Below are positions 2,030 through 48,774 of a DNA stretch of 64,000 bases, in pieces (the first letter of the stretch is position 1; each line of letters begins with the position of its first letter). A program made the position numbers and the translations under genes. The stretch lies in assembly GCA_036172245.1 (NCBI GenBank), contig JAYWIR010000103.1:1-64000 (forward strand), read 5' to 3'. The DNA is from Raillietiella orientalis (lineage: Eukaryota). The notes under the pieces were generated by a model that was not told the DNA's origin, searched no databases, and was given only the letters and a program-made list of their open reading frames with translations.

Positions 2030-2702
2030 CCCACTGTTGAAATTGTCAACAGCGTGGGGAGAGAACCGACGGAAGAGTCCGTCATCCAGACCTTTTTCGA
2101 TGACGACGCCTACGAGCGTGCGGCGGAGGAGCTGGCTGCATCGTTACAGCCAGACGCCTCCAAGGCTGGCAAAAAGGCAGTGAGGCGTCCGCCTTCCACC
2201 CAGGAGTCGGTAACTTCCTACCCCGAGGCGCAGGCCGGAAACGAAGTTTCCATTTCCGCGGATCCCCGTCGGAAGGCTGCGAGGAAGTCCAGCAAACCCC
2301 GGAAAGCGCTTCTGCCAGCCGAAGGCGTGGAAATGACTTCCGACTGCGAGGGTGCCATGAGCCTGGGAGAATCCCGGCAATCGTCACCCGAGAGACTACC
2401 ACGCACAGACACGGAAGAGATGGAGGGGGTGGAATTAGGAAAGGTACCCCAGCTGCCTGAGGAGACCGAAACCCTAATGGTCATCTCAGCCGCCTCCGAA
2501 GAGCCGAGTTCCCCCACACCGTCATCTTCCCGGCAGTAATGCCGGGAATCTCCTTTCGCCGTCGTCTGCGCATCGCCGTATGGAACGTAAACGGCATGAC
2601 AGACGCCGGTAGGAGAGGAGATATGACCGCCAATCTGGGATCGTTCGCCCTTGCGCTGCTGCAGGAGATCCATGATATCTCTACAGAAAAAGCGCAAGAG
2701 AT
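2030..2702 (+). mobile_element. LINE family C fragment: ORF1 C-terminus + start of ORF2 endonuclease
   Basis: AAEELAASLQP..KAGKKAVRRP, TAATG at 2537-2541, then IAVWNVNG..LLQEIH; cut at AQEI by family E. Confidence 0.88.
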
Positions 2703-5700
2703 TTCTCATCCGCTCACGCGAAGGCGTTTATTTCATATAAATTCAACAGAAACAATTATATAAAATAAACCAGTTGGGGACCATGCCCCCATCCTACGAC
2801 GGCACAAGTATCAAGAGTACATTGCTAATGCGCAGGCCAGAAAAACACAGCAAGATTTGTGCGAACTGGGAAAACAAACAAACAAAAACAAAAGAAATAG
2901 AAATCAACGGGGGACGCCGGGACAAGGGTCTTTAGGCTCGCTCTGGTTCGCTCCAGGATAATCGTAATGGCACCGGTATTTTAGCAGAGCGAGCGGGGAA
3001 GGGGTATAGGTGGGCTTCAGGACGTAGTGGTCACCGGATTAAGCCGTTCCTAAATGTCTGTAAATAGGCGGTGGATGCCGGCGATGTCCTCTTTGACCTC
3101 GTTACGAAGACGAGACCACCTACCAGCGTTTTCCATGGATTCTGCTGCAAATCGGTGAGCCTTCCTTCGCTGCGCAGACAACTCCAGGGTGTAGCGGGCC
3201 TACACGATGGCGCGAATGCAACACATGGTTGCGACAATCGCGCCTACCGAAAGTCCATTTCTGCTGAAGAAGCGCCGCAGCACATCAATGGCAGTGCCTC
3301 CTTGTGGCATGATGGCCGAAGTGAGCCTTCGCCACAGTTCCCGGAGGTCACCGCAGTCCAGCAAAAGGTGCGGAAAAGACTCGATCTCTCCGCACCTTAA
3401 ACAGTTTGGCAAAGCAGCTCCCCAGGAAACGATGCTTCGCTGCCTATTACAGTGTAATGCACAATGTAAAAAGAGCAGCACATCTTGTTTCCACTTAAGG
3501 GGGAACACGGAGCTGTCCAAACAAACGGGGGGAACCACTACCTCTCCGGGGGGCACACTTAAATGTTCGCTCCACCGAAGCAGGCCCTTCGCCCGATTCC
3601 GAGGTGTGGCGGCTTGCACCAGCTCCTTTGTCGTCGAGCAGCCGAGGAGCTTACTGACCCCCGCTATTTTGCAGGAGAACTCTCATAACGCCGGTATGCA
3701 ACCGTCGTTGCTTGCCCTGAGGGCAGAGCTGCGGCGAGTGGTGTCGCGGCCAGACGATCCGACATCTTCTTGTCCAGCATGACTTCGTCCATTTGATGAC
3801 TGAGGAGAAGCCGCAGGCGTCGAAGATCTTCATGACGCGTTCCTTTAAAGCTGCTTACGATGAAAAAGATTCCTGCCGCCATGCATTAATGTTCATAGGG
3901 CTGCCGGAGATCCAACATTGGGCTTCCAGCAGTGAGGACAGCTGCCTCAGCAGGAAGACAAACCCCATCATGGTGTGCCGAAAGTGGGGTAGCAACGAAA
4001 CCAGTCCCTCGCTTCCCGTTCAGCGCCTTAGTAAAAGTCTTGCGGGTAAGATCCACGGTGTACTCCACAGCTTGGCACAGAGCTGCAGCATTCGAAACTG
4101 CAGATGCAGCTCGATGCTTTTTAAGTCTAGGATGCCCAAGCCTGCATCCTAACGCGGCGTCACCAAGTCTTTAAGTCTTCCTCGAGATCGTGCAGCGGAC
4201 CACAACCTTTTGCGTAGAAGGTGCTGCGCCCAGACTTGGACTTCCTGGGAAAGTAGACAAAGAAAAAACAAAAGGCGGAGGGGGGGAGCAACGAAGGTGT
4301 TCCAGAAGCTGCCTTGTTCCGCAAGACGAACTCGCCTCCTCAGAACGGGCTATGTGCACGCTCTGCCTTCCGAAGGCAGTCCAACCACGCTTCTGAGATA
4401 CAGAAGTCGCCCAACGGCACGCCAAAGTACCTTAGGTACCTGCCCGTGGGGATCCCCAGAAGGATCCATTCGAACTCCTTCTCGCACGTCGCTCCAACCG
4501 GAACAACCATGCACTTTCTCTTGTTGACGCTCACGCCCGCACCGCGACGGACCAACTCAAAGAAATCTTCAAGCGACGCCGACAGGGTGGACATGGGAAA
4601 CAGGAGAAGTAGGTCGACGGCATACGCTGCCAGGACCGGCGTACCTGGACAGGAGCTCGGCAGGTTGGCTAGCGTCAGCATGGAAGCCTCCAGCACCATT
4701 ACAAAATAGATGCTAAAGAGCTGCGGGCTTGAGCTATCGCCCTGCCTATTTCCTCTCTTAATCGGCGCGCCGTACACGCGACAGCCACTGAAAACAATAG
4801 TTGTAATCGCGTGGCGCCAGCAGGAGCGCTAGTACGCCAACAGGGATGCCGGGAGACCCAGACGTTCCAAAAGCTCAAGAAGAAGCTTTTCGTTCACGCA
4901 ATCGAAAGCTTTGGGCAAATCGACTGCCACCGCCAAGGTTCCCAGGGTTTTTACTTTGCGACCCGCGCCCCTGTCGGTGAGAGATCGAAGGCATCGCGTA
5001 CTTACGACGATCCATCGCCACACGATGCTGAAATTGCAGCCGGATGCGGATGAATAAGAGGTTCGCGTCCATTGACCGGCCAGGAACAGCGTAGATCTGC
5101 TCCGGGCTTAATAAAGACTTCGCGATCCTTCCCATCCGCGCCAAACAAAGTTTCAAAAACAACTTGACGTCCGAATTCAGTAATGCGAACGGACGTCAAT
5201 TGTTCAGTTGGCGAAAATCTCCGCCTTCAGGCAGGTGACGCACCTTTGCTGAGCGAAACGAGGCGGGGACATCGTCCGCATCTCGCATCAGCGACGAGAG
5301 TTGGAGCAACAGAACGATGAGCTCCGCCGCAAACCACTGGAAGAATTCTGCGGGAACTCCATCCTCGCCTGGAGCTTTTCGTCTCTTGAGCCGCAAGAAG
5401 GCCTAAGAAATTTCCTGTGCCGTGAAGGGTTCATCCAGACGCGCGCGTTCCTCCTCGTCTACAACAGGTGCATTAATCGGCAGATGCAGCTCGGAGAGAC
5501 TACTTTCCGTTGATGCCTCGGCATACAGAGAAGAGTAATGGCGACTGACTATCCGCCGATGTCGGCTGGAGCCGAGCATTACCGGTCCTGGTCGTCGAAC
5601 AGAACTGTCGCTTCTGACTGACAGACCTGGCGCTCAGCCTTGCCCTTGTACTCGGATAATCGATCAACGACCGCGCGCCCTGAGTAGAAGCGGGCCTGCA

Positions 5701-7283
5701 GAAAATCTCTGCTATTGACTACACTCTCTCCGAAGCCGCGCGGAAGCTAATGCAAGGGAAACCAGCAGCAAAACTCGCGGACCGATCTTTTTAGATCGCC
5801 CTAGTCAGCGAGCTCACTTATGGCAGAGCCGCGGAGGTACTGACGAAGATTCTCCGCCGCCTTCGGGTGACTTAGCCAGTCTGTCTGCATCCTCCAAACA
5901 CAGTTAGGAGGCCCCATGCCTGGCGGGAGCAACTCGAACTCGAGCCTGTTGTGGTCTCAAATTACGGACGGCATGGGACCTTTCCGACCCACTCGAGAGA
6001 GCAAGTGTTAATCGAGGAGTACATGGTCCGGTGATGTCGCCATAACAGGGTCGACAGCGAACAAGTTGCACGCGTGCACGGACGCGTAGATCTCTTCCAC
6101 TAGTAACTTTTACCTTTTGTGTGCGCTATTCTCGGTCAGCAGGTGTGCGTTAAAGTCCCTCGCAATGAGATGGGACACAGTAGAATGAGAACGAGTAAGC
6201 CACTGGCTCTGAACGGTACGAAAGAACTCAATCCTTTCGTCCCATCGTCGAGCACCGCTCGGCGCTAACACGTTCGTTAAGAAAAGGTCATTCGAGTCGG
6301 ACCACTTGAGTACAGTCTGTCCAACTCGGCCTTCCGTGTCGAAGCGAACGCCACGCACCGCACCCACCAAAGTTCCTCGTACGAGAAAAGCGACGCCGAA
6401 CGTACGTGGGACGCCGCACCTATGATGTAGCGTTCCGTCCGCACGCCGTTCGATTTCGGCAGCCTGGTATTCGGAGATGCTGTGAATCTCCTGCAGGAAC
6501 GTCAAGTCGAAGGCTCTCTGAGCGTTAGCTACTAGTCGCCTCTTCTCGTCGTGTTGGAGACCTTTGACGTTCCAGCACGCCACGGCAACACGACGAGAAG
6601 ACGCAATTGCCCTCATCAAAGCTCTGAAAGCGAGGTCGTGGTGCTCGACTCACCCGACGAGCGGGCAGTAAGCAGCACGACGGACTGGAAGGCGCGGTCA
6701 GACCGGCATCCAGCGTGCTGCGCGTAATCGAGTGCTTCTCCCCTGGTGCAGAAACTGTGGGTTCTGGGGTGAGCACTTGCCGTTTCTCGGCGAGTGTGTC
6801 ACGCCTCAGGGCTTCATCCCTGCGGGCGCTCGCTCCCGCGCAAGTAACGCGTCGTTCAGCGGCGCTATCGAACTCCTTTGCGGAGTCTGATGCTCGCACG
6901 ATCGACGTGCGTTTGCATCCTTCCGATCGCAGAAGAATCGTCTTCTCAGTGGTCACAGAGGCGGACTTGCACGCGTTGACGGCGCTGGCTTTTTCATGGG
7001 CAGAAGAACCCTCCGCAAGTGTTTTCTTATTCACGCGGCTGTTCTTTGCTTTCAAAGAGCTCGCAGATGGAGGTTGCAAAGCCTTATTGGAAGATTTTTA
7101 TTTTCCTCTACCCACATCGTTTTATTCTCCGTCACGATTTACGGACGCTTTCGCGACTTTCATCTCGGAAACCTCCAGAGTTTTTGCTGCAGCCTCTAGG
7201 GGCGTCGCTTTCGACATGTCTTTAAAACGAGACAGCAAGTCACCTTCTTGGCAGTCGGGAGATTGCTCCTTTCTTGCCAAGTC
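2703..7283 (-). mobile_element. LINE family E copy 1 (ORF1 3' part, degenerate ORF2, 3' UTR)
   Basis: WNVKG/LQEIH endonuclease (6110-6619), KAPGEDG, DLPKAFD, CLRCGEIESFPHLLLDC; colinear with 33275-37867. Confidence 0.92.
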
Positions 7284-7931
7284 GGCCTTCCGGAACACTT
7301 CAGCAACTTCGTGAGAGTGGTAATCAAAAACCAGTACTGCCGAAAAAACATCAACAGAAAGGAGACGGCAGCAATCCGGATGGAACGGGGAGTCCGACAG
7401 GGCGATTCGCTAAGTCCGATGCTGTTCGTCATCTACATGGAGGCGTTGTCGTCCTTTATCGAGAACAGCGGACGACTGCAAGGCATAACAATCGATGGCC
7501 AGCGGCTTAACCATCTGGCATACGCTGATGATCTACTCTTCTTTATCAAGGGAGAAAGAAATCAACGAGCGTTTCCGGATGTGGTAGACCTGATGGATCA
7601 AGGTCTGGGTGTAAAGATCAACGCTCAGAAAACCCAGCTCTTGCCCGTTGTAATCCTCGATCTCTCCGCTCTAGCGGGGAGAGGATTCGGAACGGTGGAC
7701 AAGGCCAAGTACCTGGGTGTCTACATTGGTGACGTCTCCGCGTCGAAGCTACTGTGGACCGAGATCCTAGGGAAAACGGCCAAGGAAGCAGCCAAGTACA
7801 CCCGAACGGACCTTGGAATGAAGCGAAAGGCCAACATATGGAACGGAGTACTCCTTTCAAAAGTGCTCTTCGGGCGGCCTTTGCGAGGATGAACAAGAAC
7901 ACCACGAGAGAGTTCGACAAGCTGCAGAGAA
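7284..7931 (+). mobile_element. LINE family B copy 1, RT-only fragment (5'-truncated, 3' part lost)
   Basis: GVRQGDSLSPMLF, LAYADD, KYLGV; near-identical to 45441-46090. Confidence 0.9.
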
Positions 7932-10056
7932 GCAGCACACTATGTCTTGTTGTGCGATGGTCCGCACAATCAATTTTGTTTTTTCCTGGTCGACCACACC
8001 GTTTACATTCCAGGATGCGACGTTCAGCCTCCTGGCGATCGATAGGAAAGAGGCCATAAAAGGGGATGTCCTATTTGTTGGCCTTCCTGAGCTTCTTCCG
8101 TCTGAGAGAGCGTGCTCTTCCAGACAATGAAGAAGCATCGGGCTCACCGCTGCCAGCGTCACTCTCTGTTCCGGTGAGGTCGATTACTTCCGCCTCCTCC
8201 GTAGAGTGTTCGGCTCGCGGGACCAATTTGCGAGATATCGCTTCTATCTCGTCCTTGGTGCAGAACTTCGCCATTACGTCGAGAAGCTATTCTTCTTTGT
8301 CTCGCGTTAGGTGACCTCCACAACGTGGTTCAGCTTTTCGTGTGCATTGCAGATGTTCTGCAAGATTTTCTCTTTCTGATGCCCGCTTTGCAAATCGATA
8401 ACTTCCTCCGCTAGTGTTGCCAACTCCTCGGTGGACTACAGGGCCTCCTGCGACAATGGAGTTGCTTCCTGATTTCCTTCTTTCACGCCTTTCTGCGCTA
8501 CGTCTATCTTTTCGCCTTCCTGCGCTGCTCCTACTAGGATAAAAGGGGTTTCTTGCTCCTTGACGAGCATCCTCCTCTTTCCTTTCTTTCCTACCTTAAT
8601 GAAGCCGTCCGTCGATACCTGGACCGCTTCCTTCACCTTCTTCGGCCTTCATGCCAACTTCTGAGGCTGTTCCGCCTCCTCGATCTTTCTCTTTCTCAAG
8701 GGAGAGAGTCCTAGAATCCTTCTGCAATTCGCGAATTCCGGACAGCTCCATTTAGCATGTCCGTGCTTCTTGCAGAAGGTGCACACCTCCGGTTGCGGGC
8801 AGTTCCAACCTTGATGTCCTACTTTGACGCAGCGGAAACAACGGCATGTTGGGTAAGTGCCAACCCTGTGGCCGAACTGCTTGCACCCTGTGCAGAATAC
8901 GGGTTGTTGCCGGTAGCGCACGTTCACTCCCTGGGATTGTTCGTCAATGAACGCCAACCCAGGTAAAACCGCTCCCTCCTTTATCTTGATCTTGGCGATA
9001 ATGTAGCCAGAAAATATATTTCCAGAGAAGTTCTGCAATTCAAGGTCCAGAACCTCCCCAAACTGCTCCAAAAAGTTCCAAACCGTCAGCTGCGGTGTGA
9101 GGATGGAAATGCCGTTTAAGAAGACGGTCGTGTATTGCATCTCGCCAATACCACAAACCATCCTTCCTTGAATATTGATTTCCTTCTGGATCAATCTCTC
9201 TCTGATGTTTTCACAGTCTGAAAATACTGTAAAACCGTTGCTACTTGGTATAATCGCACGTATGCGATCAAAATCGATATCTGCTTTATCGAGGGACAGA
9301 TACATCTTCCTGATATTGTTAAATTTTATTAGTCCATTCTTGAAAATAATGGGCCTTACATTCGGCCCTAGCTCGACTATCGGACTATCTACCTTTTGAA
9401 CTTTTCCACATAGCGGCTTTCCAAATTTCCGTATCCGGTGGACATACGCTTGTCCAGCCGCCACCGAGGCATACGAAAAGGGCTGCGCCGCCGCAGCCGA
9501 ACATGATGGAGTCACGTCCTGTACCGCGTGGACGCCCCCGGATCCCGCCTGGGACGCCGCCGCCGCGGGCGCAGCCTTCGACGTTGCCACCGTTGCCGCC
9601 GCCGGCGGCACCCTCGGAATCGCCGCCGCAGGCGCGACCTTACCGCCGCGGGAACGATCCCTGGCGTCGCCGCAGCGGGAACGACCTCCACCGTCGTCGC
9701 CGCCTGCCCGTCCCTTGGCATGCCCGCCGCGGGCGCGATCCTCGGCATGCCTAACACTGCCCCGCCTTTACCGTACGTTACCTCCATGGCTTCCATGGGG
9801 GACGACGGTCTCTCCACTCCTCCTCCAGGTGCCTGCATCCGGGCAGCTGGTCTTGCTGCACGGGACGACTGCAGGTCTTCCGCCGTGATCTCCTCGGCGC
9901 TTCTTTTCTAGCTGTATGAGGAGATTCTATGCAGCACACTTTAGTCCACACTCATTTCCTTCTGGATACTTTTTCTATCCGGGCACAAACGATCACAATC
10001 AACTGAATAATCGTCGTCGTGCGAGCAATACTTTGAGCCACGGAGGAAGGTCAACG
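7932..10056 (-). mobile_element. LINE family B copy 2, 5' part (5' UTR, ORF1, start of endonuclease)
   Basis: ORF1 8649-9611 with CTGCKQFGH/CFRCVKVGH/CTFCKKHGHAKWSC knuckles; ASWNVNGVVD. Confidence 0.92.
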
Positions 10057-10065
10057 ACTCGGCAG

Positions 10066-13000
10066 TTTTCCCCAAGTTCCACGAGGGGTAAGGTAAATTA
10101 ATTTTTCTAAAATTTTTCTATAAAAACGTCTACACTACAGAATCCTTCATACCATTAGCACTTTTTTTTACCACTATGAAGTCCTTGGGTTCTCACAAGT
10201 TCTGCACTCATGGTGGGTTTCCTGCTGTTTGGTCCCGGGCGTCGTCTTCTATCCTCTTCAGGATGAATCGGTACGTCCAGGCTTGGATTTTCCCACAGTT
10301 TGTAATGCCGATTTCCCTCTTCAGAAGCCCTTGTAGGATCTCCAACGGTGGTGCGGCTCTTCTGGCTTTCCTCATTAAACATCACCTCACAAGTTTGGCG
10401 GTGATGAAGAGAGCGATGGTCGTCCTCACCATGTGAATGTAACAGGGAACATTACCATCTCCCTGGAACATCCAGGCGAGGATCTCCATTACGGACCTGG
10501 TGGTGAGTATGATGAGCCTTTTCAGGATCAGCCAGTCATGCAGCGATGTGGAACACGTCAAGACGTGAAGTCTCGTGTCGATATCTCCACATGCTGTGCA
10601 GTCTCGATCTTCTCTTCTTCCGGTGTAGTGCTGCAATCGGGACCCACTCTGGATTCCTCCATGATAAAACATCAGGAGGTCATCCTGGGTGCCCGGCGGA
10701 AGGACACACCTCCAGAGCGTCGTGCCAGTCGCTAACAGGTTGATCCGGTCACTCCCGTAAGGATCGGCGGCTTCCTGGAGGGCGCTTATATTACTGTCTT
10801 CTTCTTGAATTAGTCTTTGGAGGTTTGTTTTGGTTACCCTGGACCACGCAAAGTCGTTGTGGTTGAGCCACACTTCGCGAGTCATGTAGGTAAACCTTCC
10901 TAACATCATCTCTGTATACCGAAGTATACGAGTTTGATGTAGGTACCCTCCTCGTTTCCACTCCTGGATTCGTTGAAGGGTGACCTTGGACCGCTGGTGG
11001 ATCCAGCTTCTCGTGTCCGGCGGGACAGGAAGCATCCTAGGGATCACCAGGATAGACTAGTCCTCCCAGGATTCCCTACTTCTCGGCACGATCTTGATTT
11101 TGTGCTTTCGCACCAGCCGTGGCTTCCTCGTCCAGATTGGTTCAATTTATTTCCATTCTCCTGCTCGGCCTAGCAGAGCAGTCGTCAGGCCTTTCGAGTT
11201 GTTCAAGAACAACGCGTAGGCCCTGTGCGCCGCATACGGCCAGTCATCCCAGTGAGTGGCAATGTCCAGGATGTGTCGCGTATACATGATTTCTATGGAG
11301 TGTGCAAGCAACTTCATCCCGGAACCGCCTTCTTCCCTGGGACGACACAGGGGTTTTAGTCGGATTCTTGGGCGATAGTGGCCAAATAGTGTTTTTCTCT
11401 GCAGCTTATCGGACTCTCTCGTGATGTTTTTGTTCATCCTCGCGAAGGCCGCCCCGAAGAACACTTTTGGGAGGAGTACTCCGTTCCATATGTTGGCCTT
11501 TCGCTTCATTCCAAGGTCCGTTCGGGTGTACTTGGCTGCTTCCTTGGCCCTTTTCTCGAGGTTCTCGGTGCACAATAGCTTCGACGCGGAGACGTCGCCA
11601 ATGTAGACACCCAGGTACTTGGCCTTGACCACGGTTCGCAATCCTCTTCCCGCTAGAGTGGAGAGATCGAGGATTCCAACGGGCAAAAGCTGGCTTTTCT
11701 GGGAGTTGATCTTTAGACCCCGGCCTTGATCCATCAGGTCTACCACATCCAGGAACGCTCGTTGATTTCTCTCTCCCTTGATAAAAAAGAGTAGATCATC
11801 AGCGTATGCCATATGGGTAAGACGCTGGCATTCGATTGTTATGCTTTGCAGTCGTCCGCTCTTCTCGATAAAGGACGACAACGCCTCCATGTAGATGACG
11901 AACAGCATCGGACATAGCGAATCGCCCTGTCGGACTCCCCGTTCCATCCGGATTGCTGCCGTCTCCTTTCTGTTGATGTTTTCTCGGCAGTACTGGTTCT
12001 GCAGTACCACTCTCACGAAGTTGCTAAAATTTTCAGGAAGGCCTAGCTTCTCCAGAACCTTCAGCAGCATCCCGTGGCCCATGGAGTCGAAAGCCTTCTC
12101 CATGTCAGTGAACGCCAGCACCAGGTTCTCGCCTTCGTTTCGGCTGAGTCCTACGGTGGCATGGGCACAATTGACATTGTCCGACATGTGACGTCCAGGG
12201 ACTGCATACGTTTGGACCGGAGAGATGCGCCTCGACTTGAGCTTGCCTAAGCGGTTTGGCCAGATCTTCGCCAACCACTTGGCATCCGAGTTCAGGATCG
12301 AGATTGGCCTCCATTGAGCGACCTGCGTGAGGTCCCCTCTTTTTGGCAACAATGTCATCCGACTCTCGTAGAAGGACTGTGGCATCTTCCTTCTTCGCGG
12401 ATGCAGAGGGTTAACTGGTGGAACAAACGCAGGTAGGCATGCAGGTACCGCTGATAGTGAGTGATGGTTACGCTGTCAGAGCCCGCTGCCACGTCCTTGG
12501 GTAGTTGACCAAACGCAGTCTTCACCTCATCTTCGGAGAACTCCTCCTTCAGTCTGTTTCGCCGACATCGTCGGTCCTCTTCTCGAGGTAGCTCAGAAAG
12601 GCCTGTTGACTAGAGCGACAGAGATGTTGTCGCCTGAAGTGTTTCGTGTAATGCCTGTGAAAGGCATCCACGATGTCCTCAGACGACTGTCGCAATTGAC
12701 CGTCGTACAGGATGCAGAAGATATCTGTCGCCAGATTTCAGTTTTCCAGCACGTCGAACTCCCCTTTTATGTTCTTGAAGACGTACCGACTCTCGTACTG
12801 ATCCAAGTACTTTGAGAGTGAGCGCTCTTGAATGTTCAGCTCCCGGTACGTCTCCTGCCTCAAACGCCTATGCCCGAACTGCATGTTTGCAAACAGGTGT
12901 ATCCTGTGTTTCAAGCTGTCCCATTCGGCGACTCTTCGGATTGTTGTTCCCTTCAGAATCGTCTCCAGGACAGCCTGATGACCGGGATGGGTTTCGAATC

Positions 13001-15694
13001 AGGCGGGCATGCTGATGAGCACCGCCCTGGTGCCTTGCCTCCGCCGAGGATTCTCCGTTCTTAGGGAAAACCGCACCAGAGGATGATCGGACACCGTGGT
13101 CATAATGTCTCGAAAACCCTGGATGCGATTCCCAAGTTCGGTGCTGTGCAGGACGTGATCGATCGGCTTGTGACTTGCAGTTCGCCACACCACTCCGAAC
13201 TCTTCGGATAGCTGCCGTACGCCTTCCTTCCTCTGGCGTCTTGGGAGTGAATGATCTCATCCCATATGTTGAGATCGCCAGCAACAATCACGACGTCCTT
13301 GGAAGCTACGTTTTTACGAAGTGCTGCATGCAGCGCCTCCGCACAACGATGTTTTAGCCTGTACCGCCTATACACGTTCACCAGGATGAGGTGAAGAGTA
13401 GCGGACCAGGCCAGTCGCACGCCGATGATTCGTCCGGGTTGGGGACAGTACACTTCCAGAATAGTGAAGGCCCAGTTGTTCTTGATTATGACCGCCACAA
13501 AATGCGTGTTCCGTTCTCCCTCGCTCACGAACATCTGCCCGTTGAATCGCCGTTTCATTTGCTGAGTATTCTCGAGACCCATCTTGTGGGTCTCCTGCCG
13601 GCACACTATGTCTTTTTGTGCGATAATCCGCACAATCCTATTTCTTTTTTCCTAGTCGACCACACCGTTTACATTCCAGGAGGCGATGTTCAGCCCCCTG
13701 GCGGTCGATAGGGAAGAGGCCATAAAAAGGGAAGTCCTATTTCTTGGCCTTCCTGAGCTTCTTCTGTCTGAGAGAGCGTGCTCTTCCAGACAATGAAGAA
13801 GCAGCGGAATTCCCGCTGCCGGCGTCACTCTCTGTTCTAATGAGGTCGGTTACTTCCGCCTCCTCCGTCGAGTGTTCGGCCCGCGCGATCAATTTTCGAG
13901 ATAGCGCCTCTATATCGACCTTGTCGCAGAAGTTCGCCTCTACGTCGAGAAGCTGTTCCTCTAGCTTCTCGCGCTCGGTGACCTCCCCATCCTGGTTGAC
14001 CTTCTCCTGTGCATTGCAGATCTTCTGCAAGATTTTCACTTGCTGCGGACCGCTCTGCACCTCTAGGACTTCATTAGCCAGTGATGCCAGCACCTCCGTA
14101 CATTGCAGGGCCTCTTGCGACATCGGTGTGGCTTCGTCTATTTCTTCTTCCGCGCTTCTTTGCGCTACCTCCATCTTTTTGCCTTCTTGCTCTTCACCTT
14201 CCAGGATAAGAGGAGCTTCTTGCTCCTTGACGAGCATCCTCCTCTTTTCTTTCTTCCCTACCTGTATGTAGCCGTCTTCCGATACCGGGACGGATTTTTT
14301 CACCTTCTTCGTCCTTCTTGCATTCGGGGCTGTTCCGCCTTCTTGGTGTTTCTCTCTCTCACAAGAGAGAGACCTCGAACCCTTCTGCAGTCTGCAAACT
14401 CCGGACAACTCCATTAGGCATGTCCGTGTTTCTTGCAGAAGGAGCACACCTCAGGCTACGGGCAGTTTCGTACTTGATGTCCTACTTTGCCGCAACGGAA
14501 ACAGCGACACGTTGGGCAAGCGCCTTCCCTGTGGCCGAGCTGCTTTCACCCGGTGCAGAATATCGGTTGTTGCCTGTAACGCACGTTCAGTCCTTGGGAT
14601 TGTTTGTCAAGAACGGCTAATCCAGGGATGACAGCTCCCTCTTTCAACTTCATTTTGGCGATCATGTCGCCAGAAAATATATCTTCAGAGAAGTTCTGGA
14701 ATTCAAGGTCCAGAACTTCCCCATATTGCTCCCAAAAGTTCCACACCGTTAGTTGCGGTGTGAGGATGGAGATGCCGTTCAGAAAGACGGTTGTGTATGG
14801 CATTTCGCCAATACCACAAACCATCTTTCCTTGTATATTGATCCCCTTCTGGATCAATCGCTCTCTATTATTTTCACAGTCTGTGAAGACTGTGAACTTG
14901 TTATTTGCCGGTATGATCGCCTGTATGCGATCAAAATTCATATCCGTTCTATCGAGGGACAGATACACCTCCCTGATATTATTGAATTTGATCAGCCTAG
15001 TCTTGAAATTGATGGGCTTCACATTCGGCACTAATTCCACGATTGGCCGTTCCACCTTTTGGACTTTGCCGCATAGCGGCTTCCCGAAATTTCTTGGTGG
15101 GTGGACACTCGCTTGTCCAGATGCCACCGACGAATAGGACAAGGGCTGCGCCGTCGCAGCCGAACAAGATGGCATCTCGCCCTGCACCGCGTGGCCGCCC
15201 GCGGGTCCTGCCATGGACGCCGCTGCCGCGAGTGCAACCCTCGACGTCGCTACCGTTGCCGCCGCGGGCGGCACCCTCGCCATCGCCGCCGCAGGCGCGT
15301 CCTTCCCCGCCGCGGGCACGATCCTCGGCGCCGCCGCCCCGGGCACGACCTCCGCCGTCGTCGCCGCGGGCACGAGCCTTGGCATCGCCGCCGCCGTCGC
15401 AGCATAGCCCGCCTTTGGCGCGATCCTCGGCATGCCTACCACCGCCTCGCCGTTGCCGCACGTTACCTCCATGGCTTCCATGGGGGACGACGGTGTCTCC
15501 ACTCCTCCTCCAGGTGCCTGCATCCTGGCAGCTGGTCTTGCTGCACGGGACCACTGCAGGTCTTCCGCCACGATCTTCTCGGCGCTTCTTTTGTAGTTTC
15601 GTTTGGAAACTTCCCTTTTCCGGGCACACTCGAGCAGAATTAACTGATTAAGTTGTCGAGCGCACAATACTTTGAGCCGCGATGCAAGTACACC
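10066..15694 (-). mobile_element. LINE family B copy 3, full length (~5.6 kb), degenerate
   Basis: 5' UTR, ORF1 (~15523-13737), ORF2 (~13723-10180) with EN, RT (DMEKAFD, MAYADD), CTACGD..H...C, and family 3' end. Confidence 0.93.
11147..12385 (-). pseudogene. ORF2 reverse transcriptase core of family B copy 3 (open segment of a broken ORF)
   Basis: WRPISILNSDAK, DMEKAFD, GVRQGDSL, YADD, KYLGV. Confidence 0.92.
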
Positions 15695-16306
15695 CTCGGC
15701 AGGAGAGGAGCAATCTCCTCCCTGCCGCTGAGGCTCGACTTCATCGCGTTTTAAGTGTGCTGGGAAATTTGCGCCCCATGCGATTGAAGTGGAAAGCCCG
15801 CAGGGGTCCTTCACGGAAGTCGAGCAGCAAGCAGGCAAGTAGAGAATTCTACCTTGCCCTCGGACGCGATTGGCCTACTGAAGCAGCTGTTCGCAGAGCG
15901 CTTTTGATCGCAGGTGACTTCACCCTGTGCCTGCTTTGAGGTGCGCCGGATACACTGAACGACTGTGTCAACGAGTTGTGCGTAGAAATGCACACGTGCA
16001 ACTATTTGACCGGAGTTATAGCCATGGAACGCGGCATCGATCACGTGTTTATTGACCAGCACGTTTGCTCTTGCGTGGCCAGGCGCGGCAAGGTACTGTT
16101 AGAGGTTTCGGACCATGACCGGATCGTGTTCGAAGTCCATCCGCGCGACATGGGCACCCCGCGTAAGCGTGGCGTCTGCCAGAGGACTGGTTGAAGCTCC
16201 CGGACGCGGCATAACATCTCCGCGCAACATTCGGTTCTTCAGGCTGCGGACGCTTCAGGACTGAGACCGCTTCAAGGGGATCGAGAGGATCGGAGGGGGC
16301 GGCTTG
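15695..16306 (+). mobile_element. Composite LINE remnant: E-like ORF1 piece fused to an endonuclease fragment
   Basis: RQERSNLLP (as at 33275), then LIAGDF..IDHVFID..SDH. Confidence 0.75.
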
Positions 16307-18389: not shown

Positions 18390-18402
18390 TTCGCTCTAGG
18401 GC

Positions 18403-27612: not shown

Positions 27613-27779
27613 GCAAGAGGCAGCGCCCCTCGCAATCGCTAGGTTTTTCCAAGTCCCACAAGGGGTGGGGTAAGTTTATTTTTCTATAAAAATACAATAA
27701 ATTTACATTCGCACTCTCATTCACTCAATACAAACATTTTGCACTTGGGGGTCCTTGGGTTCCACTAGAGTTCTGCTTT

Positions 27780-30700
27780 TCAGGGGGGAATTCCAGCTTG
27801 ATGTTCCCGGGCGTCGTCCTGGATCCTCTTCAGGATGAATTGGTACGTCCAGGCGTGGATCTTCCCGCAGTTCCTGATTGTGATTTGCCTCTTCAAGAGC
27901 CCTTGTAGAATCTCCATCGGTGTTGCACCTCTCCTGGCTTTCCTCATTTTCCACCACCGCACAAGTATGGCGGTGATGAAGAGGGCTCTGTCCGTCCTCA
28001 CCATGGGATTGTAACAGGGAACATTACCATCCCCATGAAACACCCGGCAAGGATCTCCATAACGGACTTGTGGCTAAGTCCTATGATCCTTTTCAGGATC
28101 AGCCAGTCATGCAGCAGTGTGGGACACGACAAGACGTGAAGTCTCGTGTCGTCGTCTCCACATGCTGCGCAGTCTCGGTCTTCCCGTCTTCCTGTGAAGT
28201 GCTGCAATTGGGACCCACTCTGGGTTCCTCCGTGATAAAACATCAGGAGGTCATCCTGGGTGCCCGGCGCAAGATCACTCCTCCAGAGCGTCGTCCCGAT
28301 CGCTACCAGGTTGAACCGTTTACTCCGGTAGCGTTCGGTGGCTTCCTGGAGGGCACTGGTGTCACGGTCGTTTTCTTAGATAAGCCTTCGGAGGTTTGTT
28401 CTGGTTACCCTCGACCATGCGAAGTCGTTGTGGTTGAAACACACTTCGCGGGTCCTGTGGGTAAACCTTCCTAACATCATCTCTGTATACCGAAGTATAC
28501 GAGTTTGATGTAGGTAGCCTCCTCGCCTCCACTACTGGATTTGCAGTAGGGTAACTCTGGAGGGCTGGTAGATCCAGCTTCTCGTATCCGGCGGGACAGG
28601 AAGCATCCAACGGATCACCAGGATAGACTCGTCCTGCCAGAGTTCCCTGCTTCGCGGCACGATCTTGATTTGGTGCTTCCGCACCAGCCGTTGCTTCCTC
28701 CTCCAGGTCGGGTCGATTGTTATCCATTCCCCTACTTTGCCTAGCAGCGCAGGCATCAGGCCTTTCGAGTTGTTAAGCAACAACGCGTAGGCCCTGTGCG
28801 CCGCATACGGCCAGTCATCCCAGAGAGTGGCAAAGTCCAGGATGTGTCGCGTATTCATGATTTCCATGGAATGTACAAGCGACTTCATCCCGGAACCGCC
28901 TTCTTCCCTGAGACAACACAGGGGTTTCGGTCTTACTCTTGGGCGATAGTGGCCCCAGAGTGTTTGTCTTTGAAGCTTCTCGAACTCCCTAGTAGTGTCC
29001 TTGCTCATCCTCGCGAAGGCCGCCCCGAAGAGCACTTCCGGAAGGAGTACTCCGTTCCATATGTTGGCCTTTCGCTTCATCCCAAGGTCCGTTCGGGTGT
29101 ACCTGGCTGCTTGCTTGGCCGTTTTCCCCAGGATTTCCTTCCACAGCAGCTTCGACGCAGAGCCGTCGCCGATGTAGACTCCCAGGTACTTGGCTGTGTC
29201 CACCGTACGGAATCCACTACCCGTTAGAGTGGAGAGGTTCAGGATTCCGACGGGCAAAAGCTGACTCTTCTGGGAATTGCATTTCAAGCCCAAGCCCTGT
29301 TCCATCAAGTCCACCACATCCAGAAACGCACACTGAGTTTTCTCTCCCTTGATAAAGGAGAGTAGATCATCAGAGTATGCCAGATGGGTAAGACGCTGGC
29401 CATCGATGGTAATCCCGCTCAGTCGACCGCTCTTCTGGATAAAGGACGACAACGCCTCCATATAGATGACGAACAGCATCGGACATAGCGAGTCGACCTG
29501 TGGGAGTCCTGGTTCCATCCTAATTGCTACTGTCTCCTGGCCGTTGATCTTGATCCTGCAGTACTGGTTCTAAAGTACCGCCCTCACGAGGTTGCTGAAG
29601 TGTTCTGGAAGCCTTAGGTTCTCCAGAAGCTTCAGCAGCATTTCGTGGTCGATGGAGTCGAAAGCCTTCTCCATGTCAGTGAACACCAGCACCAGGTTCT
29701 CGCCGACGTATCGACTGAGTGCAACAGTGGCCTGGGCACAGTTGACATTGTCCGACATGTGTCGTCCTGGGACTGCACATGTCTGGACCGGAGAGATCAG
29801 CCTCGACATGACCTTGCCTAAGCGGTTGGACCAGATCTTCGCCAACCACTTGGCATCGTAGTTTAGAATCGAGATTGGCCTCCATTGGGCGATCTGGGTA
29901 GAGTCGCCTCCTTTCGGCAGCAATCTCATCCGACTCTCGTAGAAGGACTGAGGTAGTCTGCCTTCTTCCCGGCTGCAGAGGGTCAACTGGTGGAACAAGC
30001 GCAGGTAGGCGTGCAGGTACCGCTGATAGTGCGTGATGGGTACACTGTCAGGGCCCGCTGCCACGTCCTTGCGAAGTTGCCCAAACGCAGTCTTCACCTC
30101 TTCTTCGGAGAACTCCTCCTCCAGTCTGTTCCGCTGGAGGTCGTCGATCCTCTTCTCGAGATAGCTCAAGAAGGCCTGTTGACTAGAGCGACACAGCTGT
30201 TGTCGCCTGAAGTGTTTCGTGTAATGCCTGTGAAAGGCATCCACGATGTCCTCAGACGACTGTCGCTTTTGGCCGTCGTACTGGATGAAGAAGATATCTG
30301 TTGCCAGATTTCTCTTCTCCAGCACGCCGACTTCCCCTTTTATGTTATTGAGGACGTACCGACTCTCGTACTGATCGAAGTACTTTGAGAGGGAGCGATC
30401 TGGGATGTTCAGCTCCCGGTACGCCTCTTGCCTCAAGCGCCTATCCCCGAACTGCATGTTCGCAAACAGGTGTATCCTGTGTTTCAGGCTGTCCCAGTCG
30501 GCGACTCTTCGGATTGTTGTTGCCCTCAGAATCGCCTCCAGGACAGCCTGATGTCCGGGATGGGTTTCGAACCAGGCGGGCATGCTGATGAGCGCTGCCC
30601 TGGTGCCTTGCCTGCGCCGAGGATTCTCCGTTCTTAGGGAAAACCGCACCAGGGGGTGATCGGACACCGTAGTCATAGTGTCGCGAAACCCCTGGATGCG

Positions 30701-31297
30701 GTTCCCAAGTTCGGTGCTGTGCAGGACGTGATCGATTGGATTGTGGCTTGCTGTTCGCCAGACCAGTCCGAACTCCTCGGATAGCCGTCGATACGCCGTC
30801 CTTCCTCTGGCGTCTTCCGAATGAATGACCTCATCCAAGATGTTGAGATCGCCAGCAACAATCACGACGTCCTTCGGGGCGACCATTTGCCGAAGTGTTG
30901 CATGCAGCGCCTCCGCACTACGATGTTTTAGCCTGTACGGCCCGTACACGTTCACCAGGATAAGGTGAACAGTTGCGGTCCAGGCCAGTCGCACGCCGAT
31001 GATTCGTCCGGGTTGGGGACAGAACACTCCCAGAATAGTGGGGGCTAAGTGGTTCTTTATTAGCACCGCCACACCCTTCGTATTCCGTTCTCCTTCGTTG
31101 ACGAACATCTGCCCGTTGAATCGCCGTTCCATTCGCTGGCTTATCTCCAGACCCATCCTGTGGGTCTCCTGCAGGCACACGATGTCTTGTTGTGCGATGG
31201 TTCGCACAATCCTTCTTCTTTTTCCCTGGTCGACCACACCGTTTACGTTCCAGGAGGCGATGTTCATCCTCCCGGCGGTCGATAGGGAAGAGGCCAT
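27780..31297 (-). pseudogene. ORF2 (APE-RT) of family B copy 4
   Basis: Open 31297-29570 (WNVNG, LQETH, GDLN, IDH, SDH, DMEKAFD), then stops/indels; YSDD. Confidence 0.92.
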
Positions 31298-31310
31298 AAA
31301 AGGGGAAGAC

Positions 31311-33020
31311 CTATTTTTTGGCCTTCCTGAGCTTCTTCTGTCTGAGAGAGCGTGCTCTTCCAGACAATGAAGAAGCAGAGGGCTTCTCGCTGCCGGCGTC
31401 ACTCTCCGTACCTGTGAGGTCGGTAATTTCCGCCTCCTCCGTAGAGCGTTCCGCCTGCGCGATCAATTTTCGAGATAGCGCCTCTATTTCGACCTTGGCG
31501 CAGAAGTTCGCCTTCACGTCGAGAAGCTGTTCCTCTAACTTCTCGCGTTCAGCGACCTCCACCACCTGGTTGATGTTCTCTTGTGGAGTGCAGATCTTCT
31601 GCAAGATTTTCTCTTGCTGAGGACCGCTCTGCACCTCCATGATCTCCTCCGCCAGTGTTGTCAACTCCTCCGTAGTCTGCAGAGCCTCCTGCGACACTTT
31701 AGTGGCTTCCTGTCTCTCTTCCTTCGCGCCTTCCTGCGCTACCTCCATCTTCTCGCCTTCCTGCTCTGCTGCTTCCAGGATTTGAGGAGTTCCTTGCTCC
31801 TTGACGAGCATCCTCCTCTTTCCCTTCTTTCCCACTCCTATGAAGCCGTCCGCCGACACCGGGACACCTTCTTTTACTTTTTTTTGTTTTCCTGCCTTCT
31901 GAGGCGGTTCGGCCTCCTTGATGTTTCTCTCTCTCACGGGAGAGAGACCTCGAATCCTTCTGCAGTTTTCAAACTCCGGACAGCTCCATTTCGCATGTCC
32001 GTGTTTCTTGCAGAAGGAGCACACCTCCGGATGCGGGCAGTTTCGGACTTGATGTCCTACTTTGCCGCAGCGGAAACCACGACTCGTTGGGCAAGAGCCG
32101 GCCCTGTGGCCGAACTGCTTGCACCCGGTGCAGAATACCGGTTGTTGCCGGTAACGCACATTCACTCCCTGGGGTTGTTCGTCAATAACGGCCAATCCAG
32201 GGATCACCGCTCCCTCCCTCAACTTCATCTTGGCGATCATGTCGCCAGAAAATATGTTTCCAGAGAAGTTCTGGAAATCAAGGTCCAGAACTTCCCCAAA
32301 CTGCTCCAAGTGATTCCACACCGCTAGTTGCGGGGTGAGGATGGAGATGCCGTTTAAAAAGACGGTTGTGTATGGCATCTCGCCAATACCACAAACCATC
32401 CGTCCTTGTATATTGATCCCCTTCTGGATCAATCGTTCTCTAATGTTTTCACAGTCTGTAAAGACTGTGAACCCGTTGTTCGATGGAATGATCGCCTGAA
32501 TGCGATCAAAGTCTATGTCCGTCTTGTCGAGGGACAAATAGACCTCCCTGATGTTATTAAATTTTATTAGCCCCGTCTTGAAGATAATAAGCTTCACGTT
32601 GGGGTCTATTTCGACTATTGGTCGGTCCACTTTTAGAACTTTTCCGCTAAGCGGCTTACCGAATTTCCGAGGAGGGTGGACACTTGCCTGTCCAGCCGTC
32701 ACCGACGCATAAGAAAAGGGCTGCGACGCCGCAGCCGAACAAGATGGCGTCGCTTCCTGCACCGTGTGGACGCCCGCGGGTCCCGCCTGGGACGCCACCG
32801 CCGCGGGCGCAAACCTCGACGTTGCAGCCGTTACCGCCGCGGGCGGCACCCTCAGCATCGCCGCCGCAGGCGCGACCTTCCCCGCCGCTGGCACGATCCT
32901 CGGCGTCGCCGCCGCGGGCACGACCTCCGCCGTCGTCGCTGCGGGCACGACCCTTGGCATCGGCGCCGCCGGCGCGGCAAAGCCCGCCGCGGGCGCGATC
33001 CTCGGCATGCCTGCCGCCAC
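31311..33020 (-). CDS. ORF1 protein of family B copy 4 (Ala-rich repeats, RRM-like region, three CCHC-type knuckles, acidic/basic tail)
   Basis: 569 open codons; CTGCKQFGHRAGSC, FRCGKVGHQVRNC, CSFCKKHGHAKWSC; the natural start is probably further upstream, beyond a TGA. Confidence 0.85.
   Translation of the reverse strand: MAAGMPRIAPAAGFAAPAAPMPRVVPAATTAEVVPAAATPRIVPAAGKVAPAAAMLRVPPAAVTAATSRFAPAAVASQAGPAGVHTVQEATPSCSAAASQPFSYASVTAGQASVHPPRKFGKPLSGKVLKVDRPIVEIDPNVKLIIFKTGLIKFNNIREVYLSLDKTDIDFDRIQAIIPSNNGFTVFTDCENIRERLIQKGINIQGRMVCGIGEMPYTTVFLNGISILTPQLAVWNHLEQFGEVLDLDFQNFSGNIFSGDMIAKMKLREGAVIPGLAVIDEQPQGVNVRYRQQPVFCTGCKQFGHRAGSCPTSRGFRCGKVGHQVRNCPHPEVCSFCKKHGHAKWSCPEFENCRRIRGLSPVRERNIKEAEPPQKAGKQKKVKEGVPVSADGFIGVGKKGKRRMLVKEQGTPQILEAAEQEGEKMEVAQEGAKEERQEATKVSQEALQTTEELTTLAEEIMEVQSGPQQEKILQKICTPQENINQVVEVAEREKLEEQLLDVKANFCAKVEIEALSRKLIAQAERSTEEAEITDLTGTESDAGSEKPSASSLSGRARSLRQKKLRKAKK
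32790..33020 (-). repeat. Degenerate ~21-30 bp coding tandem repeat in family B ORF1 (MPRIAPAAG/MPRVVPAAT/TPRIVPAAG)
   Basis: Recurring gccgcgggcacgacc/gccgcgggcgcgatc units; also ~15230-15440 and ~9550-9750. Confidence 0.75.
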
Positions 33021-33942
33021 CTCGCCGTTGCCTCACGTTACCTGCATGGCTTCCATGGGGGACGACGGTCTCTCCACTCCTCCTCTATGTGTCTGCATCC
33101 TGGCAGCTGGTCTTGCTGCACGGGACCACTGCAGGTCTTTTGCCGCGATCTCCTCGCCGCTTCTTTTTTTTTAGTTTCGTCTGGAAAACTTCCCCTCTCC
33201 GGGAACACACGAGCACAATTAACTGATTACTTTGTCAAGCGCACAATACTTTGAGCCGCGGAGCAAGTTCACCCACTCGGCAAGAGAGGAGCAATCTCCC
33301 GACTGTCAAGAAGGTGACTCTGTTGCCGCCTTTGAAAGGCGTAGCAAAAGCAACGCCCCCAGAGAACGCAGCGGAAATCCCGGAGGTTTCCGCAATTACT
33401 GTCGCGGAAGCCTCCGAAAAACGCGAAGGCGAATGGAAGGTTGTGGAGAGGAGGAAAGAAAAATCTCCAAAAAAAGCTCCGCAACATCCATCCCTGAGCT
33501 CTTTCAAAGGAAAAAGCAGTCGCTGGAATACGAAAACACGCGCGGCTTGTGCCTCTTCCCAGGAAAAAGCCAGCGCCTTCAACGCGTACAGGTCCGCTTC
33601 TGTGACCGCCGAGAAGTCCATTCCTGTGCAATCGAACGGATGCAAGCGCACGTCGATCGTGCGAGCATCAGACTCCTCAAAGGAGTCCGATAGCGCCGCT
33701 GAACGACGCGTTACTCGCGCGGGAGCGAGCGCCCGCAGGGCTGAAGCCATGAGGCGTGACACACTCGCCGCGGAACAGCGAGTGCTTACCCCGGAACCCA
33801 CAGGTTCTGCACCCGGGGAGGAGCACCCGATTACGTGCAGCACAGTTGAGGCCGGTGGCGTCTGCGCCCTCCAGCCCGTCGTGCTGCTTACTGCCAGCTC
33901 GCCGGGTGAGGCGAGCACCACGGCCTTGCTTTCCCAGCCGTG

Positions 33943-36900: not shown

Positions 36901-37514
36901 CGGGAGTCAGTAAGCTCCTCGGCAGCTGGACGACAAAGGAGCTGGTGCAAGCCGCCACACCTCGGAATCGGGCGAAGGGACTGCTTCGGTGGAGCGAACA
37001 TTTGAGTGTGCCCCCCGGAGAGATAGTGGTTCCCCCCGTTTGTTTGGACAGCTCCGTGTTCCCCCTTAAGTGGAAACAAGATGTGCTGCTCTTTTTACAT
37101 TGTGCATTTCACTGTAATAGGCAGCGAAGCATCGTTTCAGGGGGAGCTGCTTTGCCAAACTGTTTAAGGTGCGGAGAGATCGAGTCTTTTCCGCACCTTT
37201 TGTTGGACTGCGGTGACCTCCGGGAACTGTGGCGAAGGCTCACTTCGGCCATCATGCCACAAGGAGGCACTGCCATTGATGTGCTGCGGGGCTTCTTCAG
37301 CAGAAATGGACTTTCGGTTGGCGCGATTGTCGCAACCATGTGTTGCGTTCGCGCCATCGTGAAGGCCCGCTACGCCCTGGAGTTGTCATCGCAGCGAAGG
37401 GAGGCTCACCTGCTTGCAGCTCAATTCATGGAGAAGGCTTCAAGGTGGTCTCATCTTCGTGACAAGGTGAATGAGGACATCACCGGCATACATCGCCGGT
37501 TTACACACCTTTGA
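33943..37514 (+). pseudogene. ORF2 of family E copy 2 (~1190 codons; 2 stops and 1 frameshift)
   Basis: ORF pieces 33940-34566, 34567-35685, 35689-36027 and 36024-37514 join into APE-RT(YADD)-CLRCGE..H...C. Confidence 0.93.
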
Positions 37515-37837
37515 GAACGGCGTAATCCGGTGACCCCTGCGACCCCTCGCCCACCCATACCCCGTCCCCGTTCGCTCGGTAAAATTTCCGGTGCCCATGC
37601 TTTTATCCCCGTGTCTTCCAGAGCGATCCCAAAGACCCTTATCCCGTCCTCCTTATTCATTGTTTTTATTTTATTTTGGTTTCTTTGTGTTCCCTGCCCC
37701 CCCACACCGTTCACAAAACTGTTACTCTGGCCTGCGTGCCAGCAATATTCTCTTCATTCTTGTTCAGTCGTCGGTTGGGAGTTTGGTTCCCAACTGGTTT
37801 ATTTTGTATAATTGCTTTTTTTGGTTATGTTATATGG

Positions 37838-37867
37838 AATAAACGCCCCGGCGTGACCGGGTGAGAA
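37838..37867 (+). terminator. 3'-end module: AATAAA poly(A) signal + CCCGG-CGTGA-CCGGG hairpin + short A
   Basis: Same module at 42733-42762, 60738-60767, 23923-23953, 16307-16337(-), 50087-50118(-), 56227-56256(-), 61313-61343(-). Confidence 0.7.
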
Positions 37868-47414: not shown

Positions 47415-48774
47415 CCTGCCGAGTTGGCGAAGGGGCGACTGCATGCAGCGTGCTTTTGCTTGCTGCGACGCTGCTTTTACGGCTTTCGTAGCCTCTGAAG
47501 AAAGGCCTACGCTGCAGTGGGGCTGTCCGGAACTCGGAAGGGACAAAGGAACGGGGCTAAAACTCTTCGTACTGTTGCGATCTTTTTGTTTTTCTACCTT
47601 TCCCTTTAGGGTGTTACGGAGATTTCCTGGTTCCTGGCTCGGAGAGTTGCCTGCGAGTTCGGCAGAGAGGAAAGGCACGGCACGCGTCAAACCCTCGCGC
47701 CCCTTTTATTGTCTTCTCCGCCGTGACTTTCCAGTTTAGGGGCGTTGCGGGCGGGGATGCTTTCTTTTCATCCGTGGATCGCTCGTTGTTTTTTCCGAGT
47801 TTTTGCCGACGACTTTTTTTATTTGCCGCTGCGGCTTTTCGTGCAGTGGTCTCTTCAACCCGACGAATTTCCGATGCGGCTCTTTTTCGTGCAAGTACCG
47901 AGCATTTTTTGATTTCGTGCCCGGAATCTTTGCAATAACGGCATCTAGGAGAGGGGCACTCTTTAATTCGGAGCCCATTCTTGCCTCACTGCTTGCACGC
48001 GCGAGTTTGGTCTATAAATCACAGATGAACGACCGTGCCGTTCAACTGCAGCTGCTCAGGCACAACACGCCTGTTCGCGACGGTGATCCGAGCGGAGGCT
48101 TGTCCGATGTGGACAAAGGAGGAATCCTTCAAAGGGTTCGGCGTCCTCTACAGGGCGTGCACTGTGGCGAACTTCGCCAGCACGCTTACAACATCGCGGT
48201 CGGAGATTTCCGGTTCGATGTCGCACAATTGAACGACAAAAGAGTCGTCCATCGCGGTAGGTAGGACTTCCTTGCCATTGATGGTCAACGGCGTACGGAG
48301 AAGGCGCTGCACAAGTGCTGCGTTCTTGCACCGAATCTTCGTATATTCCATCCTGCCAGCAGGCATTATGGCAACGAGTTCCTCCTCGCGAACGCCGATC
48401 CGGACGAGCTCATCATTGAGCTCACGACCGATTCTCCCGTTAAGGGGCCCACTGACCTTATAACGGAGTGCAGGCATGTATCCTGATGACACATATGCCT
48501 GGAACTCCGCATCGCAGGGTCCTGGTCCTTGGGAGGTAACGGCGGCGTAACTCCTCACCGGGGGCGAGGAAACCATTACGGAGGATGCGGCCACTTCAAG
48601 TGCAGCTCAAGTGCATCCAGTGGCTTGCTCCTCCACACTATCCTGTGTACTGGCCATGTTGCACTATGCTACTTGGCAGATTGCACAGGAACACACAAGT
48701 GCGAGCGAAAACCCAGGCACAAAGTTGCCGGATCGTTGGCGCGGATAGACGCGGAAACACGTCTGCACTGTACG
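47415..48774 (-). mobile_element. LINE family E copy 3, 5' UTR + ORF1 N-terminal half
   Basis: ORF1-like VQRLLRTPL..LAKFATVHAL; ends in tcgccaactcggcagg, which overlaps the start of the E 3' half at 33275 (actcggcaag). Confidence 0.82.

Follow-up and report, generated by a model that had tools for sequence, protein, structure and literature searches.

Long interspersed nuclear elements (LINEs) that insert at a fixed site mostly use ribosomal RNA (rRNA) genes, small-RNA genes, telomeres, or microsatellites, and one classic case uses a DNA transposon. The stretch of DNA analyzed here, positions 1 to 64,000 of the forward strand of contig JAYWIR010000103.1 from the Raillietiella orientalis assembly GCA_036172245.1 (hereafter the window, at its full 64 kb), raises the question of whether a LINE can have the coding sequence of another LINE as its target. 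Its content is exclusively nested non-long terminal repeat retrotransposons with a GC content of 51-61%, a LINE island in which self-comparison and Pfam domains distinguish at least seven families carrying an apurinic/apyrimidinic endonuclease (APE)-type endonuclease and a reverse transcriptase (RT), and neither tRNA genes nor Rfam families at the gathering score were found in it. One of these families, B, is in our view likely to be an APE-type LINE of the L1 group with a specific target, a block of about 24 nt, ACTYGGCARGARAGGAGCAATCTCC, in the C-terminal part of open reading frame 1 (ORF1) of a second family, E.

The window holds five pieces of family B and, by blastn with a full copy and tblastn with the B proteins, nothing else that is B-like. 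A preliminary description of the locus, based on six junctions that are all found where it placed them, had claimed that B always lands antisense at the motif ACTCGGCAG(G) in ORF1 of E. This claim holds for every preserved end of the five copies: all 4 preserved 5' junctions, including that of the copy truncated within the RT (B_a), and all 3 preserved 3' ends adjoin the motif or a variant of it, for a total of 7/7 in the window. B runs antisense to E in all 4 hosts, and all four E or E-like copies that keep the target region are occupied by B. The motif stands on both sides of B as a target site duplication (TSD) of 9-10 bp; both copies of the duplication flank B_c as ACTCGGCAG(G), both flank B_2 with one of them decayed, and for B_a, B_b, and B_3 the duplication is seen across copies. 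Two details of the earlier account need adjusting. The span 7262-7300 to which it had attached the claim does contain the junction of the truncated copy but covers that junction alone, and positions 10057-10065, which it had rightly given as a 3' junction, had been counted only as such when they are also the 5' junction of B_b (10056/10057).

The same description had argued for independent events of target-primed reverse transcription (TPRT) with a 9-10 bp TSD, and we agree: the five pieces go back to at least four, and probably five, separate B insertions. The insertions must be independent because the truncated B_a and the full-length copies have their 5' junction at the identical nucleotide, and because B_a, B_c, and B_3 are 92-94% alike (B_a is 94.1% identical to B_3 and 92.2% to B_c) while residing in hosts that are only about 60-84% alike (82-84% between E_a and E_2, and about 60-64% between E_c and E). 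The remaining copies are more distant from one another, B_b being 83-84% identical to B_c and B_2, and B_c 85.6% identical to B_2 over 5.6 kb. B_b and B_c lie head to tail with one motif between them and are 83% alike, and this too speaks for separate events since re-insertion into a regenerated target gives such a layout.

The motif is a part of E and not of B. It is found at the junction of B_a, a copy without the first 3.6 kb of B, and next to the 3' end of B_3 it continues into 1.35 kb of E ORF1, the frame passing the motif in phase 0 on either side (in E_3-up, and in E_2, where it goes on for about 240 codons and ends just within the APE region). These two junctions rule out the possibility, named in the preliminary description, that the motif is the terminal sequence of B itself. 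The position of the target in the tail of ORF1 likewise proves correct, as it follows the CCHC knuckle and precedes the ORF1 stop by about 240 codons. E_3-up is the sole copy of that part of E in the window, and a fifth E copy, E_4, is 5'-truncated, so that the target region is absent from it.

How much of the sequence around the motif matters can be judged from its distribution. The bare 9-mer is not enriched in the window (30 matches with up to one mismatch against 20.45 expected), whereas the 21-mer GGCAGGAGAGGAGCAATCTCC has 3 matches with up to three mismatches against 0.01 expected, a number reached in 0 of 100 shuffles, and all three are at B 5' junctions. A 30-nt probe for the "down" half-site finds the same three places only, and within the window the extended block is confined to E or E-like sequence. 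The peptide ..RQERSNL.. and the block of about 24 nt are kept even in E_c, whose remaining 115-130 nt or so past the block are only about 60-64% identical to E. The specificity had earlier been ascribed to family E itself; this is right insofar as the block is found only in E and E-like sequence, but because E_c is a distant E relative that keeps the block, the specificity appears to be for the block and not for family E as such. That E_c might be a 5' transduction by B_c was considered and ruled out, since E_c past the block is about 60% like E whereas B_c is 86-92% like other B copies. E_c is followed at once, with no change of orientation, by a fragment of A-like APE sequence (15834-16279), about 900 bp short of the normal layout, and the two together are a chimera or else a divergent element with an internal deletion.

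Table 1. Copies of families B and E, insertion junctions, and motif copies in the window; junction sequences are read on the E-sense strand.
Feature	Position	Strand	Sequence	Description
B_a	7283..7931	+		begins inside RT, B ref 3664-4308; RVT_1 profile positions 82-204
B_b	7935..10056	-		5' 2.1 kb of B (B ref 1-2100), 5' end at motif
B_c	10066..15693	-		full-length B, ~5.6 kb
B_2	27644..33274	-		full-length B; three CCHC knuckles in ORF1; APE and RT in ORF2
B_3	44893..47414	+		3' 2.5 kb of B (B ref 3115-5634)
B_2 5' junction	33274/33275		..TTCACCC / ACTCGGCAAGAGAGGAGCAATCTCC	full-length copy
B_c 5' junction	15693/4 / 15695		..TACACC / CTCGGCAGGAGAGGAGCAATCTCC	full-length copy
B_b 5' junction	10056/10057		..GTCAACG / ACTCGGCAG	
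B_a 5' junction	7283/7282	-	..GGAAGGCCG / ACTTGGCAAGAAAGGAGCAATCTCC	truncated copy
B_3 3' junction	47415-47424 (rc ACTCGGCAGG)		..CGCCAACTCGGCAGG / TTCCCCC (rc 47415-47429)	then 1.35 kb of E ORF1
B_c 3' junction	10057-10065		ACTCGGCAG / TTTTCCCC	between B_b and B_c
B_2 3' junction	27634-27643		..CGCAATCGCTAGG / TTTTTCC	decayed motif
Decayed motif	27634..27643	+	AATCGCTAGG	7/10 positions kept; ~20-30 nt of E-ORF1-like sequence before it
Tandem-junction motif, single	10057..10065	+	ACTCGGCAG	B_b 5' end / B_c 3' end
E_a	2702..7282	-		B target site to E 3' end (APE, RT); 84% identical to 33272-38557 over 5.3 kb
E_a motif copy	7273-7282	-	rc ACTTGGCAAG	
E_c	15694..15833	+	(C)CTCGGCAGG	divergent E-like ORF1 tail, starts with the sequence given and the conserved block
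E_2	33275..37868	+	ACTCGGCAAG (33275-33284)	from motif to 3' end ..GGGTGAGAAA
E_3-up	47415..48769	-	ACTCGGCAGG (47415-47424)	E 5' untranslated region and ORF1 (CCHC knuckle), ends in the motif

The coding content of B includes an endonuclease and an RT. ORF2 of this family, which is about 5.6 kb long, contains Exo_endo_phos (5.5e-18) and RVT_1 (1.5e-13 and 1.9e-32) domains, and the N-terminal WNVNG and QETH and the C-terminal IDH and SDH align with the catalytic motifs of L1-EN, so both the APE-like domain with its catalytic motifs and the RT are present. None of the copies in the window is intact; ORF2 of B_2 has several in-frame stops, and the C-terminal part of ORF2 is open over 732 codons in B_3. 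The nearest solved proteins in PDB are human L1 ORF2p (E 1.4e-44) and L1-EN, with R2 at 6.8e-27, and the best database proteins, at about 31% identity, carry RVT_1, Exo_endo_phos, and zf-RVT, some of them being named LINE-1 ORF2. By this similarity of its ORF2 to L1-type proteins, B would be placed in the L1 group (L1/Tx1), although it lacks the long poly(A) of that group and ends instead in a hairpin followed by 2-5 A's. Its description as the most divergent family is borne out as well; B is an outlier because its ORF2 shares only 26-37% amino acid identity with the other families of the window, with short stretches of up to 44%. At the 5' end it starts with GGGTGAACTTGC, unlike the start motif of E and the A-type elements, and an Rfam search for a ribozyme like that of hepatitis delta virus at this end gave nothing credible.

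If B inserts by TPRT, the junctions can be accounted for in a few steps. A nick on the E-sense strand just past ..ACTCGGCAG(G) would provide the 3' end that primes B cDNA, and the T-run directly after the motif, the complement of the short A tail of B, is what a cDNA starting at the nick would leave. A second-strand cut 9-10 nt upstream, just before ACTCGG, would give rise to the 9-10 bp duplication and would fix the 5' junction for full-length as well as truncated copies, while re-insertion at the regenerated motif would produce B-B tandems. Since the target site is asymmetric, B would always come to lie antisense to E, splitting ORF1. In this scheme, the B endonuclease itself would read the block and set the exact positions of the nicks, and sequence specificity borne by the endonuclease is described as established for the APE-type LINEs Tx1L (in Tx1D), R1, TRAS1, and SART1 (PMC1919474).

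A number of observations weigh against a target-specific B and need to be set beside this evidence. All of the results come from one 64-kb window, and "always" stands for the five B copies there. No uninterrupted E copy with an empty B site is present in the window, where only the continuity of the ORF1 frame through the motif lends such a site indirect support, and 3 of the 10 B boundaries are off the motif. Two of these are the sides of the join between B_a and B_b, and at the third, 44893, B_3 is broken off against a family A copy that is itself 5'-truncated; we read all three as probable later rearrangements and not as insertion junctions. The join of B_a (+) to B_b (-) is a tail-to-tail, non-homologous one at internal positions (7931/7935) with a few ambiguous bases, and it looks like a deletion between two facing B copies in which both 3' ends and the two E ORF1 5' parts would have been lost. 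There are also no close relatives of B in the protein or metagenome collections, where nothing above about 31% was found for B ORF2, and a search for related loci returned relatives of 25-29% only. Outside the window, one run containing related short contigs (run X1; share of words 0.12, 85% cut-off) gave only one contig that bridges a junction, a 595-nt one spanning the B 3' end/E ORF1 junction (47374-47707) at about 90% likeness, and no joint between the E parts upstream and downstream of the target (E-up/E-down), as expected of an empty E site, was among the 15 of 20 X1 joints listed. Old E copies are undercounted in this run because the E copies of the window are 84% alike and the cut-off was 85%. 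A degenerate 21-mer of the E block had 0 matches in metagenome contigs. The remaining adverse points, which concern the A tail of B, the X1 depth, and the parallel divergence of two copies and their hosts, belong to alternatives that we consider in turn.

The short A tail of B, 2-5 A's in length, is unable to pair with the primer end ..GGCAGG, and this keeps alive an alternative that we nevertheless regard as unlikely, namely that B is site-specific but owes its precision to RNA or cDNA homology rather than to its endonuclease. Read-through B transcripts made from copies already resident in E, and carrying E sequence at their 3' end, would anneal to nicked E, and a fairly unspecific nick close to the site would then suffice; such a transcript would be complementary to the primer strand by construction, and all families in the window end in AATAAAC, a hairpin, and a short A-run, with no long poly(A). 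In a variant of the same idea, ectopic gene conversion between E copies could spread B. The truncated copy, however, has its 5' junction at the same nucleotide as the full-length copies, a sign of a fixed cut in the second strand and not of annealing on the 3' side, and conversion is unable to create the junction between E and position 3664 of the B reference. Furthermore, the host of B_c shares only the 24-nt block with E, leaving little homology to anneal.

Alternatively, B may have no more than a preference, for some short motif or for chromatin as found in the LINE island here, and may lie elsewhere outside E, in which case the window exaggerates the association. We think this very unlikely, while conceding that five copies in one window, picked for its striking pattern, leave room for it. 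Summed over contigs, the depth in X1 reaches 46-73 for B, 12.5-26.5 for E, and 9-12 for E-up; the value for B is 4-6x that of the E ORF1 flanks (9-12.5), which would also fit B copies outside E. Yet this ratio fits the tandems and eroded flanks seen in the window just as well, where, after tandem insertion and later breaks, each preserved E-up flank is matched by about 3-4 B copies. Just one more exact ACTCGGCAG occurs in the window (16591); it lacks the block and is empty of B, and 7/7 preserved ends are at the block though most of the window sequence belongs to other LINE families.

Finally, one ancestral insertion of B in E followed by segmental duplication or by retrotransposition of an E+B composite is hardly tenable and has been largely refuted: the equal divergence of B_a and B_2 (83.7%) and of their hosts E_a and E_2 (82-84%) would, taken alone, fit co-duplication, and a composite is duplicated elsewhere in the window (40663-44076 against 52183-48770, 91.5%), but truncated and full-length copies share their junction, likeness within the tandem pair B_b/B_c is only 83%, that between B_c and B_a is 92% while the host of B_c is about 60% like E_a, and both TSD copies are present.

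A target-specific B raises the further question of how its host family chooses its own sites, and here the window gives a similar answer. Family E is site-specific in family A, with 4/4 of its ends at one site at the start of A ORF2, in antisense orientation. All three E 3' ends (2702, 37868, and 60768) read ..GGGTGAGAAA / TCTCTTGCGCTT.., and the sole E 5' end (48769) is preceded by ..GTTCGATCTCTTGCGCTCGTAC; the TSD of E in A is about 16 bp, TCTCTTGCGCTYGTAC, with the 5' end and TSD at 48769-48785. In three A-type copies the E site is unoccupied (44061-44076, 20308-20323, and ~54090). Because E_2 and E_4 are 94.8% alike but their flanks only 77.8%, the E insertions in A are independent, and the flank of E_4 is 93.7% like an empty copy, A_x. 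One X1 contig with a loose end at 37869 continues from the E 3' end into TTCAATCTCCGCCTGCT, which resembles the A site from a start about 5 nt more upstream; it may represent one more insertion of E in A, with a shifted cut.

For family A, both 5' ends (18390 and 23966) are preceded by TCGAACGCYTTG (18378-18389 and 23954-23965). The first of these, at 18378, is the antisense KAFD motif from the RT of a LINE on the minus strand (16307-18390), and the second, at 23954, separates two A copies in tandem; at 27219 the motif recurs exactly but is empty. The KAFD motif in the RT gene of another LINE may be a place where A lands antisense, for which the two cases are only suggestive. Whether all of this amounts to a hierarchy of site-specific LINEs landing in each other's coding sequences, with B in ORF1 of E, E at the start of A ORF2, and A perhaps at the KAFD motif of an RT, seems to us an evenly balanced question. 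Families C, D, and F were considered as further site-specific families and rejected, as their 3' junctions differ from copy to copy and show no recurrent site.

Some features of the ends of these families can be added. The 3' ends in the window are at 2702(-), 16307(-), 23953(+), 25163(-), 37868(+), 42762(+), 50091(-), 56226(-), 60768(+), and 61313(-), together with those of B at 10066(-), 27644(-), and 47414(+). In every family the AATAAAC is followed by a GC hairpin (CCCGG..CCGGG, or CCCAC..GTGGG in B) and then by 2-5 A's, and this common terminal structure is probably the element recognized by the RT. The 5' ends of E and the A-type elements share the start motif (G)GACGTGTYTTYC, at 48750-48769(-), 18390-18420(+), 23966-23996(+), and ~39750-39790(-). 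E_4 (55972-56226 and 57887-61312) is split by a minus-strand copy of family F (56226-57887), with 12 nt of E repeated on both sides (the E_2 equivalents are 34989-35000) as a 12-bp TSD. The two-family composite mentioned above occurs twice, the second time inverted, its 91.5% identity extending across the junction at which the D 3' end is joined antisense to the A RT start (42762/42763), and it represents either a segmental duplication or a fourth recurrent site. A D-family ORF has one database match, at 64%, and a "longer" search found none.

Target-specific LINEs, one of them in a DNA transposon, and LINEs that nest within themselves are already established, and family B can be compared with both as the cited papers describe them. 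Target-specific non-LTR elements fall in the Tx1 and R1 clades, with transposons among their targets (PMC4640811). One close counterpart is the Xenopus laevis element Tx1L, whose insertions lie in the DNA transposon Tx1D (PMC1919474); like B, it is an APE-type LINE of the L1/Tx1 group with a defined target inside a mobile element and with fixed orientation and junctions. The target of B, in contrast, is ORF1 of a LINE from the same broad lineage and not a DNA transposon, and its host LINE is itself site-specific in a third LINE. R1, TRAS1, and SART1 of the R1 clade, which insert in ribosomal DNA and telomeric repeats and for which the endonuclease has been shown to carry the specificity (PMC1919474), resemble B in their APE endonuclease, in precise cuts on both strands that give a fixed TSD, and in having copies only in the target (for B, within the window), but their targets are multicopy genes or repeats of the host and not a transposon. 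The match of the B endonuclease is with L1-EN; of the 51 PDB sequences found at E values up to 1, none is an endonuclease chain of R1Bm or TRAS1.

On the side of self-nesting, Zepp and ZeppL of green algae form LINE clusters by insertion within themselves (PMC8226300, PMC3446292), and Cnl1 of Cryptococcus inserts within itself, in tandem, near telomeres (PMC9942834). As in the window, Zepp and ZeppL are L1-type LINEs inserted into LINEs, building LINE-only islands of nested and tandem copies; Cnl1 shares with B the preference for LINE sequence and the nested arrays. Zepp, however, targets its own copies and forms tandem arrays of 3' ends, and Cnl1 inserts into itself in tandem, whereas B inserts across families, in antisense, and with nucleotide precision. 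Nesting of B in B was not found, since 0 of the 5 B pieces are interrupted by B and the sole B-B tandem holds the E-derived motif. Among open-access full texts, we found no description of a LINE that targets LINE coding sequence in this cross-family, antisense, nucleotide-exact manner, nor of a chain of such targets.

If the targeting proposed here is correct, then B would be a LINE with the coding sequence of another LINE as its safe haven, its host in turn targeting a third, which would constitute a new niche for such elements. A chain of this type would by itself be enough to build and maintain a gene-free, LINE-only island, allowing the families in it to grow without harm to genes. For the study and perhaps the redirection of LINE target choice, it would offer two or three new natural pairs of L1-type endonuclease and target. 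One retrotransposon family would act as the specific disruptor of another, and with each tier disabling copies of the tier beneath it, the relationship would be one of hyperparasitism among retrotransposons.

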